NCBI GenBank assembly: GCA_964363145.1
Contig: CAYIHE010000001.1
Coordinates: 1-53,447 of the forward strand
Length of the DNA stretch: 53,447 nt
Source of the DNA: an uncultured Gammaproteobacteria bacterium
GTDB taxonomy: Bacteria; Patescibacteriota; Patescibacteriia; Magasanikbacterales; GWA2-37-8
Direction of reading: 5' to 3'
Positions 1-53,447 of the stretch are shown one piece after another. Position numbers and translations under genes: made by a program. The notes beneath the pieces were generated by a model. That model was not told the origin of the DNA, did not search any database, and worked only from the letters and a program-made list of their open reading frames with translations. Within the stretch, counting starts at the first letter, position 1. Each line of letters opens with the position of its first letter.

Positions 1-1085
1 AAAGCCGTGCGATAATGTTCCTCGCCGACAATGTTAGGGTCCAGCACGGTGGAGTTTGAGTCAAGCGGATCCACAGCCGGATAAATACCCAATTCAGAAA
101 GTGAGCGGTTTAAAACCACGGTAGAATCCAAGTGCGCGAAAGTAGTGGCCGGAGCCGGATCAGTGAGGTCGTCAGCCGGCACATATACGGCTTGCACGGA
201 AGTAATAGAGCCGCGTTCGGTACTCGTAATACGTTCTTGCAAAGCGCCCATTTCGCTGGCCAAAGTTGGCTGATAACCCACGGCTGAAGGCATACGTCCG
301 AGCAAGGCTGAAACTTCGGAACCGGCTTGAGTAAAACGAAAAATATTATCCACAAAAAGCAGTAAATCCTTGCCTTCTTCATCGCGAAAATATTCGGCCA
401 TGGATAAAGCGGTCAAAGCCACGCGAGAGCGCGCACCAGGCGGTTCATTCATTTGACCAAAGACCAAAGCGGTTTTGCTTAACACGCCGGACTCTTTCAT
501 TTCGCGGTATAAATCATTTCCTTCACGGCTTCTCTCCCCCACTCCGGCAAACATAGAATAGCCGCCATGTTCTTGGGCGATGTTGCGGATAAGTTCTTGG
601 ATAACTACGGTTTTTCCAACGCCGGCTCCGCCGAATAATCCGATTTTTCCGCCTTTCAAAAACGGACAAATCAAATCAATGACTTTAATGCCAGTTTCCA
701 AAATCTCGGTCTTGGTGGACTGCTCTTTAAAAGTTGGAGCTTTTCGGTGAATTGGGTATGTCTTTTCGTTTTTTACTTCACCAAGGCCGTCTATGGCCTC
801 GCCGGTGACATTAAACATACGGCCCAAAGTGGCTGGGCCAACCGGCACGGAAATTGGCTTACCGGTATCTATTACTTCGGTTTCTCTCTGCAAGCCATCA
901 GTGGTGCTCATTGCAACAGTACGCACGGTGTTTGAGCCCAGATGTTGTTGAACTTCCAATACCAAAGTTTGCTCATTGTCCAGTTTTATTTCCAGCGCGT
1001 TAAAAAGCGCCGGTAATTTTTCCGGGAAATGCACGTCTACCACCACACCGATGATTTGGGATATTGTTCCTTTGTTCATATTCAT
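1..1085 (-). CDS. atpD: F1 ATP synthase beta subunit, 5' part (C-terminus runs off the left edge)
   Basis: Absent from the ORF track because it is open to position 1. Own translation from ATG at 1083-1085: [25 protein letters not shown]...[42 protein letters not shown] (Walker A GGAGVGKT). Lies directly downstream of atpG. Confidence 0.9.
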
Positions 1086-1105
1086 AAATTATTATTTTTT
1101 TATAT

Positions 1106-1191
1106 TGTCATTCTGAGTGAAACGAAGAATCTTTGTCTAGTTTGTGCTGAATAACGACGGACAGAGATCCTTCACTCTGTTCAGGATGACA
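1106..1191. repeat. MITE-like palindromic element, family B (TGTCATTCTGAG...TTCAGGATGACA)
   Basis: Inverted termini. The core GGACAGAGATCCTTCAC is shared with copies at 7243, 16666, 32766, 42047 and 43847. Fills the atpG-atpD spacer. Confidence 0.8.
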
Positions 1192-1196
1192 AATAC

Positions 1197-2150
1197 CTAC
1201 TCCAGCGCCGCGGCTCCGCCCGCTATTTCGGCAATTTCTTGCGTGATGCCGGCTTGCCTGGCTTTATTAAAATTTAAATTTAGTTCGTTAATCATATCTT
1301 CGGCCGCGTCGCTGGCGTTTCGCATTGCCAGCATTCTGGCGCTATGTTCGCTGGCCGCGGATTCCAGCATTACCTGATAAATTTGTGTTTCCACAAGTCG
1401 CGGTAAAACAATTTCTAAAACACTTTGTTTATTCGGTTCAAAAAGATAGTCATCCAGCTCTACTTTTACGGATGAATTTTTTTCCAGTTTTAATTCGGTA
1501 ATATCGGTTAAAATTTCTTCCAAATCAATTTTGGAAATAGGCAAAACTTGTTTTAATTTCGCGACCTGTGAAAGCGTGGATTTAAAATCCGTGTAAGCCA
1601 CCACCACTTTGTCATAAGTTTTTTTGGTGTAAGCGTCTATCACCATTTTGCTAATCGGCAAAGCGTCGTCCAAACCCGGCGTGTCGGTCATGCTGGTAAA
1701 AGAGGCCACTAAATTATATCCCATTTTTTTGGCAAAATCCGCGCCTTTTTTTCCAATCCCGATCACATCAACGTTTATTTTTTCATTTGGCAAAAACTCT
1801 TTTCCTTTTATAATTTGTTTAGCCAGATATTTTGTGTCTTTCATCTGCGCGGCCGTCTTTTTTATAATATTGGAATTAAAACTACCGCACAATCCCCTGT
1901 TAGAAGTAATTATAATCATTAAAATTTTTTGTACTGGCCTGATTTCCAACAGAGGAATCAACGCTGTTTGTGATTGAGAAAGATTAACCAGTAAATTCCA
2001 AGCCAGCGTAGCGTAAGTACGGGTGTCCAAAGCCGCGTTGACGGCCTTGCGCATTTTGGCGGCCGCCACCATTTCCATTGCCTTGGTGATTTTTTTGGTG
2101 CTACCTATGGATTTTAGGCGGCGCTTGATTACTTTGGTGTTTACACCCAT
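1197..2150 (-). CDS. atpG: F1 ATP synthase gamma subunit
   Basis: 317 aa. N-terminus IKRRLKSIGSTKKITKAMEMVAAAKMRKA and C-terminus ARQAGITQEIAEIAGGAAALE are typical gamma-subunit ends. Operon position between atpA and atpD. Confidence 0.9.
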   Translation of the reverse strand: MGVNTKVIKRRLKSIGSTKKITKAMEMVAAAKMRKAVNAALDTRTYATLAWNLLVNLSQSQTALIPLLEIRPVQKILMIIITSNRGLCGSFNSNIIKKTAAQMKDTKYLAKQIIKGKEFLPNEKINVDVIGIGKKGADFAKKMGYNLVASFTSMTDTPGLDDALPISKMVIDAYTKKTYDKVVVAYTDFKSTLSQVAKLKQVLPISKIDLEEILTDITELKLEKNSSVKVELDDYLFEPNKQSVLEIVLPRLVETQIYQVMLESAASEHSARMLAMRNASDAAEDMINELNLNFNKARQAGITQEIAEIAGGAAALE

Positions 2151-2199
2151 ACGTTAATTTATAATTTCAGATTTAAGAATTATGATTTTAGCGATTGGT

Positions 2200-2326
2200 T
2201 GTCATTGCGAGGAGCCGTAGCGACGCGGTCCCGTAGCGAACGGGATCCGCGATCTTCAAGATCGGGACAATCTACTTATTGGCACTACCATCCGATGGGA
2301 TTGCTTCGCTGTGGCTCGCAATGACA
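2200..2326. repeat. MITE-like palindromic element, family A (TGTCATTGCGAGG...CTCGCAATGACA)
   Basis: Inverted termini. The first ~70 nt are near-identical to the copy at 51075. Contains the 41-nt hairpin module E at 2230-2270. Fills the atpA-atpG spacer. Confidence 0.85.
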
Positions 2327-2327
2327 A

Positions 2328-52007: not shown

Positions 52008-52044
52008 GGGATTACACAGATTTACAGTGTGGATTACACTGATA
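52008..52044. repeat. GATTAC-type leader repeat
   Basis: GGGATTACACAGATTTACAGTGTGGATTACACTGATAG, starting 7 nt upstream of the start codon at 52001. Confidence 0.7.
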
Positions 52045-52107
52045 GATATTGTGGTATTATTTTGATTATTATATCTTTTTTTTAGGAAAAAAGCAAACCC
52101 GCGCTCC

Positions 52108-52136
52108 TTGACAAATCACTATAATTATGGTATATA
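52108..52136 (+). promoter_or_regulatory. Consensus sigma70-like promoter
   Basis: TTGACA (52108-52113), 17-nt spacer, TATATA (52131-52136). Confidence 0.45.
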
Positions 52137-52175
52137 AACACCAGTCAAACACGGTATTTGGCGAGGAGGAACACC

Positions 52176-52559
52176 ATGAGAAAGCTCGTTGTTCCATCGA
52201 TTGTTATTGGATTCGTCTGGTTCTTTCTGGTGATCGTCCTAAACTTGATCGACCAAGTTGCAGACAAACGAATCACATCAGTTGCCTACGGGATCTCTAT
52301 TGTCGCCTTATTCTATATGTGGGACATTCTAACAGCGTGGTACGATTTCAAGCCATTCTCGAAGAAGTTCTTTCTGGCACTGGCGATTTTTGCAGGCGTC
52401 AGCATGAGTTTGATGTGGACAGTATATTTCTTGCAACTAATTCCCAAGAAACTCCACATATCATTCGGTTGGGTGCTTGTGGGATGGCTGCCGGCCACCA
52501 TCGTCCGGGCACTTGTACCAATACCCAGAAAGAAAAACCCGGGCTCCACGACCGACTAA
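52176..52559 (+). CDS. Orphan 127-aa 4-TM membrane protein with a strong SD
   Basis: Start moved to MRKLVVPS because GAGGAGG (52163-52169) lies 6 nt upstream. Hydrophobic segments. No motif. Confidence 0.55.
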   Translation: MRKLVVPSIVIGFVWFFLVIVLNLIDQVADKRITSVAYGISIVALFYMWDILTAWYDFKPFSKKFFLALAIFAGVSMSLMWTVYFLQLIPKKLHISFGWVLVGWLPATIVRALVPIPRKKNPGSTTD

Positions 52560-52763
52560 TTGGCGCATCGCGCTTCTCCCTGTTGTTCTATGACAACTGG
52601 GATTATTTTTTTACTTTTGAGGTATATGGCTTCTTACTTTTCTCCATCCCCTTATAAAAAAAAAGATTATCCCTCCCCTTATAGGAGAGGGAACGAAACG
52701 AGTGAATAAAAAAGCCCTAGGTATCACCAAGGGCGACGGCGGCTGATTATTGCTAGGAAAGAG

Positions 52764-53291
52764 CTATTTGGGATTATGAGCATTGGCTAAATACCTACAG
52801 CGAAATGGCACCCATTTCTTCCTTTCCATTATCGCCACAAACGTAACATATTCTTCTTCACTGCCATTACCGGCAAAGAACCGAACAGGACCGCAGTATC
52901 TTTCTATAGTACCACGCCTTATTGCTTTTCCAGCCTCCGTTTCTTCAGTAAAGAAGTCAATCCAGAATTCTACTTCACTATAGACTTGCACCTGAGCAGT
53001 AAAGAAACCGGGCTGGTTGGCCACCTGCTTCATTGGTAGTGAATATATCACGCCATCATTCCAATCTTTGTTAATATGCTCACTTACCTTAATAACAGTA
53101 CCCTCATCCGGCAGATCAACAATCTGCACGATGATCATATCACGCTTCTTCATCAACTCGTTGTGATATCTCTCCGCCTTATCCCACTCGCTCAATCCTC
53201 TGTTATGACTACAGCCGCCGTTGATGACCGCCATAGGCACGAGGAGCACACTGACAACGATGAATGACAGCATGAGACGACAGTGTGACAT
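52764..53291 (-). CDS. Orphan secreted/lipoprotein-like protein (175 aa)
   Basis: Start taken at MSHCRLMLSFIVVSVLLVPMAVINGGC (signal peptide with Cys). Minus-strand TTGACA (53384-53389), 17-nt spacer, TAGTTT upstream. No motif. Confidence 0.5.
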   Translation of the reverse strand: MSHCRLMLSFIVVSVLLVPMAVINGGCSHNRGLSEWDKAERYHNELMKKRDMIIVQIVDLPDEGTVIKVSEHINKDWNDGVIYSLPMKQVANQPGFFTAQVQVYSEVEFWIDFFTEETEAGKAIRRGTIERYCGPVRFFAGNGSEEEYVTFVAIMERKKWVPFRCRYLANAHNPK

Positions 53292-53447
53292 GGTAGATTC
53301 CTTTTCACACAGAAACCCGAATCGCTCGGGCAAGCGCGCCGCTAATTTAGCGGACAGATTAAACTAACATACAAATATCCGATTGTCAAACATTGTACTG
53401 TTGCACAGTTAAAGTTACCTTCTGTGGATAAATTAATGATAATGAAT

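Follow-up and report, generated by a model that had tools for sequence, protein, structure and literature searches.

The 53,447-nt contig CAYIHE010000001.1 (contig C1; hereafter the window, meaning this whole stretch of DNA) belongs to the metagenome-assembled genome (MAG) GCA_964363145.1 from the candidate phyla radiation (CPR). Here, we show by comparing the start regions of this MAG and its relatives that the genome contains two gene classes with distinct, heritable predicted start signals. About nine in ten genes (~840) carry no Shine-Dalgarno (SD) sequence, and 67-85% of these have a T at position -1, directly 5' of the start codon. Another ~96 open reading frames (ORFs; 10%), seven of them in the window, are preceded by a strong SD, 6-8 nt 5' of the ATG. 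At a probability of about 0.68, we propose that two initiation signals exist side by side, with acquired accessory genes keeping a functional SD and core genes using an SD-less UAUG.

The MAG comprises 961 kb in 114 contigs, with an estimated completeness of 93.6% and contamination of 0.56%. The AtpA encoded in it shares 75-90% identity with proteins from MAGs of Candidatus Magasanikbacteria and other Patescibacteria, which places the lineage in the Magasanikbacteria of the CPR. Genes were called with a simple codon-based caller of our own, yielding 906 genes genome-wide and 52 in the window, and ORFs with an SD plus ATG were sought genome-wide in a separate scan; the ~96 SD-led ATG ORFs consist of 66 called genes and 30 that the caller had missed. 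Pairing energies were computed against the 16S rRNA tail of relatives.

A sequence-only reading of the window had stated that its native genes lack SD sequences, and this was borne out: among the 52 called genes, none outside the six SD-led ones listed by that reading has an SD of 5 nt or longer. T precedes the start codon in 43 of the 52. Native genes confirmed by Pfam include atpA, atpG, atpF, metG, rsmI, nifS, rrf2, copA, murB, and the genes for an ATP-grasp protein, an MraY-type transferase, a Mur ligase, and an FG-GAP protein. Of 41 CPR genomes examined, 38 have an SD-less tATG at the start of atpA, which exemplifies the class. The contrast extends well beyond the window. Genome-wide, an SD-like motif is missing from 791 of 869 longest-ORF starts, and the median pairing energy is -3.5 kcal/mol at native starts, -4.65 kcal/mol at internal control sites, and -11.35 kcal/mol at SD-led starts. 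T at -1 was found at 604 of 903 unrefined longest-ORF starts and at 85% after start refinement, a figure that is partly circular; it reached 76% and 70% in the congeners G010 and G006, 151/190 at orthologous starts placed by homology, and 82-89% among genes around atpA in close relatives. Apart from this T, native leaders are A/U-rich. Among the few native genes with another base there is a sulfatase-domain gene of native composition (25837-28107, minus strand), which has A at -1, a weak GAGG 6 nt upstream, and AAGGAG at -24.

The initiator tRNA gene (C41:7689-7763) encodes a canonical CUCAUAA anticodon loop in which A37 is present. Pairing of U(-1) with A37, which adds a fourth base pair, is an established enhancer of initiation in E. 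coli and chloroplasts (PMC10018350), and from the start regions and this loop we infer that U(-1):A37 pairing is probably the main start determinant of native genes. The U directly 5' of the start codon and the canonical loop are shared with the described quadruplet codon-anticodon pairing; the difference is that in E. coli this pairing is a modest modulator atop the SD, whereas here ~70-85% of native genes have U(-1), which seems to serve as their chief sequence-specific start signal. Leaderless mRNAs were ruled out as an explanation for the native class, since operon-internal genes such as atpA also start with tATG and -10 boxes were not seen at any fixed distance. An alternative genetic code was likewise ruled out, since TGA serves as a stop in long ORFs. 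Of the release factor genes, considered with regard to a prfB frameshift site as a further sign of anti-SD use, the complete one scores below the RF2 cut-off, and the second is represented by its C-terminal end only, at a contig edge.

The six SD sites of the window that had been picked out from the sequence are all present, as AAGGAGG or GAGGAG(G/A) 6-8 nt 5' of an ATG, and their predicted pairing energies range from -11.1 to -13.0 kcal/mol. Internal in-frame start codons are preceded by an SD of at least 6 nt in 0.5% of cases, so that ~0.25 would be expected among 52 starts where six were observed; six or seven SDs in one window are thus far above chance. The seventh is an SD-led, lipoprotein-like ORF that the earlier reading had not listed. 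Across the genome, SD-like 4-mers are sharply concentrated at -13 to -9, though only in a minority of genes, and the density of AGGAGG-N5-9-ATG is 62 per Mb, compared with 24 per Mb in a distance control. The SD-led ORFs are spread over ~50 contigs, almost always beside native genes; they cluster (28 adjacent pairs vs 8.6 expected), and their enrichment near contig ends, which would have hinted at hypervariable islands, was not significant.

The two classes also differ in composition. G+C content at third codon positions (GC3) is 0.54 in SD-led and 0.43 in native genes (p = 5e-22), and SD-led ORFs score lower for native codon usage (p = 1e-13). The base at -1 is C in 47, A in 26, G in 16, and T in only 7 of them (p = 2e-7), showing that T is avoided. 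The earlier claim that every odd ORF carries a strong SD holds in part: the six sites are real and one could be added, but genome-wide the SD-led share of called genes is 75% at GC3 of at least 0.60 and 27% at GC3 of at least 0.50. The SD-led products are accessory proteins that evolve fast. Among them, Pfam recognized an M1 peptidase, an amine oxidase, an ADP-ribosylglycohydrolase, and a His phosphatase; metalloproteases and many orphans also belong to the class. In a crude motif screen, lipobox proteins made up 8/96 of the SD-led and 0/840 of the native class (p = 9e-9); although Lgt (C56) and LspA (C61) are encoded, the lipobox proteins found are exclusively SD-led. Signal-peptide-like N-termini are modestly enriched among SD-led proteins. 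Of ten clustered SD-led proteins, none matched PHROG and one had a weak Pfam match. Among 61 genomes of the order, 33 show an at least two-fold excess of AGGAGG-N5-9-ATG over a reversed-pattern control.

The sequence-only reading had further assumed an SD-independent host, but a host incapable of using SDs is not supported. The 16S tail GGATCACCTCCTTTCT, with CCUCC kept, is shared by all 11 relatives examined, among them five congeners. SDs are kept in 7/8 orthologues of SD-led genes, as opposed to 5/190 orthologues of native genes, and this retention shows that the SDs of the SD-led class are under apparent constraint, rather than being passive relics. Because the anti-SD is intact in relatives and the SD motifs are conserved while their flanks diverge, these SDs are probably functional. 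The 16S genes of some relatives (L011 = G019:C9:2223-4265, L008, L010) span 1.62-2.04 kb, compared with a 1.53-kb model, which suggests insertions or introns; both are known from 16S genes of CPR bacteria.

Among core genes, a strong conserved SD was found only for rpsU, encoding the ribosomal protein bS21 (C10:2949-3188); many core genes with strong SDs, which would have made the contrast in the window a sampling artefact, were thus not seen. The extended SD of rpsU, gaaagtGAGGTGtaattATG, has a pairing energy of -15.7 kcal/mol. At all 25 loci from the genus, family, and order, the rpsU start is preceded by an SD-like motif at a distance of 4-7 nt (22 nt in one case), and comparably strong SDs were present at ~22 of 29 loci sampled across the phylum, where neighboring genes are SD-poor. 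No SD was found for rpsR, rpsF, ssb, or rpsA, which have T at -1.

Conservation in the SD-led class can be followed best in a GC-rich island of the window (41.1-43.8 kb; 57-62% GC), which is made up of three SD-led ORFs on the minus strand. It is syntenic, between a Wzy-type gene and a giant gene, in four other contigs from three independent assemblies (L145/146, L148, L149) and in G006; at least five related assemblies carry the island, and four of them retain the SD motif. The four island-bearing contigs keep a GC3 of 0.74-0.86 and the motif CCAGAGGAGA, in place of which the G006 orthologue of island gene 2 has AAAGGAG; orthologues of island gene 1 (L145/146, L148, L149) retain the SD at a GC3 of 0.75-0.86. 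Island proteins are 26-62% identical across assemblies, vs 65-90% for their native neighbors, and in the upstream alignment of island gene 2 (A1), 9 of 11 invariant columns fall within the SD and ATG. The 231-aa island protein has seven homologues only, and those whose contigs were read share one genomic context. Directly 5' of the SDs of island genes 2 and 3 lies a short hairpin (43014-43030 and 41969-41985, minus strand), with equivalents in L145, L148, and L149; the stems vary between relatives (GGTCGC/GCGACC, GGGC/GCCC, CCCGC/GCGGG) with pairing preserved, and these hairpins may represent an mRNA-processing or -stabilizing element in the island operon.

Similar persistence was observed elsewhere in the window. 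For the 98-aa ORF at 23348, an orthologue in G006 (45% amino acid identity) is likewise syntenic and SD-led, and in genome G011 the family is represented by two tandem paralogues, each with its own SD and with GC3 of 0.90 and 0.58 (L167, G011:C1:89000-95000, ~2774-3527, minus strand), making it SD-led in three genomes. At the syntenic site of G006 (at 186306), promoter and SD of the 17227 unit are kept as well. A homologue of ORF 52176 was not present beside the orthologue of its 263-aa neighbor in L145 or L148.

As to origin, the claim that an SD marks foreign genes can be upheld only partially. The SD does track atypical accessory genes, which stand out in GC3 and codon score and have fewer congener matches: 8/96 SD-led vs 267/840 native genes had matches in G010 (400 kb), which shows almost no SD peak, and 13/96 vs 254/840 in G006 (304 kb). 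On the other hand, no outside donor was found for the orphan genes, and the island is syntenic in five assemblies. An SD-led, GC-rich gene (C9:14355-16985; L218) encodes an M1 aminopeptidase (Peptidase_M1 and ERAP1_C domains). Its closest homologues, at 50-71% identity, come from the CPR; next in line are metazoan puromycin-sensitive aminopeptidases, ~45% identical over the full length. The gene is SD-led in four CPR lineages. A copy in the congener DATION01 has an SD-less tATG start and a GC3 of 0.33, and is apparently a 'naturalised' version (UAUG, AT-rich).

Atypical genes account for ~8-9% of a typical bacterial genome (PMC6028130). The SD-led class resembles the 'atypical genes' of GeneMarkS-2 described there in its share (~10%) with deviant GC3 and codon usage, patchy distribution, accessory functions, and one ameliorated congener copy, that of the M1 peptidase, but differs in being marked also by a distinct initiation signal. 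What is unusual is that the initiation signal of the atypical class differs from that of the native genes and has been retained. Simple amelioration would not predict that the SD signal and high GC3 persist in syntenic orthologues at 35-62% amino acid identity.

In the explanation that we favor, U(-1) of the core class (~90%) would add a fourth base pair to the contact with the initiator tRNA by pairing with A37, and the SD-led genes (~10%) would have been acquired horizontally on separate occasions, being translated by ordinary SD/anti-SD pairing. Conversion of these genes to the UAUG, AT-rich style would occur slowly or never, with the M1 peptidase as a converted example. With lower confidence, and by analogy to the Bacteroidia, bS21 might gate access to the anti-SD. 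Several points weigh against this picture. A 16S rRNA gene was not found in the MAG, and the anti-SD was inferred from congeners; the gene starts come from our own simple caller, and circularity affects the refined share of T at -1, unlike the unrefined 67-79%. No outside donor was found for the orphan SD-led genes. A GC3 of ~0.8 in the island at 35-62% amino acid identity is unexpected under simple amelioration, and its being held at this level fits a maintained endogenous class as well as import. Regarding bS21, its C-terminus is basic (net +7) and not less so than that of E. coli; the Tyr of its conserved motif is at most a candidate equivalent of the Tyr54 of Bacteroidia.

Bacteroidial ribosomes have their anti-SD sequestered by bS21, bS18, and bS6, and the SD of rpsU serves for autoregulation of this gene (PMC7797042, PMC9976891, PMC13000453). 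The pocket is characterized there by Tyr54 and a less basic C-terminus in bS21, Phe50, Asn56, and Lys37 in bS18, and Trp100 and Arg103 in bS6. Shared with Flavobacterium johnsoniae and other Bacteroidia is the genome-wide SD depletion with a retained CCUCC anti-SD, here read in relatives. Further common features are an extended rpsU SD (-15.7 kcal/mol here, compared with a criterion of below -13 in PMC9976891), genes for bS18, bS6, and bS1 without a strong SD, and A-rich leaders. Apart from belonging to another phylum, our organism differs in its native signal, which is U at -1 instead of adenines at -3, -6, and -11 to -14, and in having ~96 further SD-led ORFs, whereas rpsU has essentially the sole strong SD in F. 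johnsoniae. In the order studied here, the C-terminus of bS21 is extended by a conserved stretch with an EYLxKxG motif, which is absent from E. coli bS21 (L113, L116-L144), and bS6, encoded by rpsF, is unusually long (160 aa).

A conserved extended SD was found in no core gene other than rpsU, which suggests control of anti-SD access by bS21. A more far-reaching version of this idea holds that Patescibacteria ribosomes are largely SD-blind via bS21, convergently or as a trait shared with the Bacteroidia, with rpsU autoregulated, U(-1):A37 selecting core genes, and the SD-led genes, with all the lipobox proteins of the crude screen, forming a regulon read preferentially by ribosomes lacking bS21. 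We put this forward tentatively, as a possibility rather than an expectation. Some CPR lineages are reported to lack the anti-SD (PMC9297842, PMC10783764). Few SD-led genes are a trait shared with such SD-scarce lineages (PMC9297842; class iv of PMC10783764), but there the anti-SD was lost, whereas the lineage studied here still has it, and rpsU and the accessory class evidently make use of it. No CPR lineage appears in the named classes or the representative table of 'SD-scarce with conserved CCUCC' in PMC10783764.

Instead of having been acquired, the SD-led genes might be an old, lineage-internal class, in which selection keeps the SD, a non-U base at -1, and GC-rich codons, and which uses a separate, postulated route such as ribosomes lacking bS21, making it a translational regulon. 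The island and the 98-aa family keep their SDs, in several genomes, and mostly a high GC3 despite saturation of synonymous sites, U at -1 is actively avoided (7/96), all Lgt/LspA lipobox substrates found by the crude screen are SD-led, the rpsU SD is conserved, the spaced motif is in excess in 33/61 order genomes, and a donor is missing. Such an origin is nevertheless unlikely in our view, considering the patchy distribution among congeners, G010 with almost no such class, the M1 peptidase with its naturalised SD-less copy and eukaryote-like relatives, and the heterogeneity of functions.

The stronger form of the earlier reading would regard these genes as recent imports from SD-using donors that are poorly or not translated, their SDs being unselected leftovers. 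Atypical composition and codon usage, the many SD-led ORFs without Pfam or PHROG matches, and fewer congener matches than for native genes would fit. We consider this very unlikely given SD retention in 7/8 orthologues, with SD and ATG as almost the sole invariant upstream columns, synteny across at least five assemblies, ORFs that stay open at protein identities of 26-65%, and the intact anti-SD in relatives.

It is hardly credible that the class is cargo of integrated phages, plasmids, or cassette arrays bringing their own expression signals. Clustering of SD-led genes, MITE-like repeats (resembling miniature inverted-repeat transposable elements) that flank and interrupt the island, and the organization of several window genes as promoter-to-terminator units are reminiscent of such elements, but PHROG matched 0/10 clustered proteins, Pfam revealed no integrase or transposase beside the window units, the units occupy conserved syntenic sites, and the repeat family is the host's own. 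This repeat, a palindrome of ~76 nt (TGTCATYCTGAAC ... GTTCAGRATGACA; 10 arm matches vs 1.1 expected), is found inside and bordering the island and also in ordinary host spacers. An identity as integron attC sites was rejected, since by eye its ends (..CTGAAC / GTTCAG..) misfit the RYYYAAC / GTTRRRY cores and it also occurs in host spacers. An artefact, be it a chimeric assembly, a contaminated bin, or SD-like words arising by chance in DNA of higher GC, is a negligible prospect even for a MAG in 114 pieces, as SD-led ORFs are interleaved with native genes on ~50 contigs, the arrangement recurs in independent NCBI, ENA, and Logan assemblies and in G006, the motifs are position-specific relative to start codons, and estimated contamination is 0.56%.

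The plus-strand ORFs at 17227, 23348, and 52176 exactly occupy gaps between native genes, and several SD-led ORFs of the window are predicted to be independent units, each equipped with a sigma-70-type promoter and a terminator (Table 1). The promoter-like site upstream of the island probably drives the island genes. Pfam gave no matches for the six SD-led window ORFs listed earlier or for overlapping alternatives, and scans of the window with Rfam models and for tRNAs were without matches. Arrays of the motifs GGATTACAC / TGTAAATCYGTGTAATC were noticed at 17050-17140, at 52000-52050, and upstream of 7812 (minus strand), directly 5' of three native minus-strand genes (starts 17052, 52001, and 7812), two of which are divergent from SD-led units; these arrays may be an operator or promoter element.

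Table 1. Coordinates of start signals, ORFs, and associated elements in the window
Feature	Position	Strand	Description
MITE-like repeat copies	1106-1191; 32766-32843; 42046-42121 (+42200-42212); 43845-43921		inside/bordering island and in ordinary host spacers
atpA	2328..3845	-	native-class example; upstream taatttaatATG, no SD, T at -1
Promoter-like site	17174-17202	+	TTGACT-17-TAGCAT; promoter scan; unit 17174..17461
SD	17213-17220	+	AAAGGAGG, then 6 nt to ATG
ORF	17227-17424	+	65 aa; no Pfam match
Terminator	17437-17461	+	strong; 11-bp stem and T8
Promoter	23272-23300	+	TTGACA-17-TATGAT, 11/12 matches; promoter scan; unit 23272..23700
SD	23335-23341	+	AAGGAGG, then 6 nt to ATG
ORF	23348-23644	+	98 aa; GC 0.61, GC3 0.92
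Terminator	23663-23700	+	hairpin and T-run
Island gene 3	41953..41159	-	264 aa; lipobox signal peptide, Pro/Thr/Asp-rich linker, Cys-rich C-terminus; GC 0.67
SD of island gene 3	41961-41968	-	AGAGGAGA, then 7 nt
Island gene 2	42998..42303	-	231 aa; signal peptide; GC3 0.81
SD of island gene 2	43006-43013	-	AGAGGAGA, then 7 nt
Island gene 1	43784..43227	-	185 aa; predicted single-pass membrane protein; GC3 0.84
SD of island gene 1	43791-43799	-	GAGAGGAGA, then 6 nt
Promoter-like site	44099-44071	-	TTGACA-17-TATAGT with extended TG; best such site in 40700-53447
TTGACA box	~52113	+	upstream of ORF 52176
SD	52163-52169	+	GAGGAGG, then 6 nt to ATG
ORF	52176-52559	+	127 aa; four predicted transmembrane segments; GC3 0.59
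Terminator-like hairpin	52732-52715	-	3' of seventh ORF
Seventh SD-led ORF	53291..52764	-	lipoprotein-like (MSHCRLMLSFIVVSVLLVPMAVINGGC...); absent from earlier list
SD of seventh ORF	53299-53304	-	gAAAAGGAAtctaccATG with AAAGGA

In literature on Shine-Dalgarno sequences combined with Patescibacteria, Parcubacteria, or CPR, we found no account of a two-class split of this kind. Gene finders trained on one start model will mis-call starts or miss one class in CPR genomes; our own caller missed 30 of the 96 SD-led ORFs. In these mostly uncultured organisms, the split in start signals provides a simple sequence marker of the accessory and surface gene pool. It also suggests a testable form of translational control, involving bS21 and the rpsU SD, U(-1) core starts, and an SD-led minority. 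Should the SD-led genes indeed form a regulon of ribosomes lacking bS21, the output of surface and host-interaction proteins would be coupled to the state of the ribosome. In the literature searched, a control system of bS21 and the rpsU SD is known only from the Bacteroidia; if confirmed here, regulation by specialized ribosomes would reach a very large bacterial radiation, and the rules of gene expression in the CPR would become clearer.

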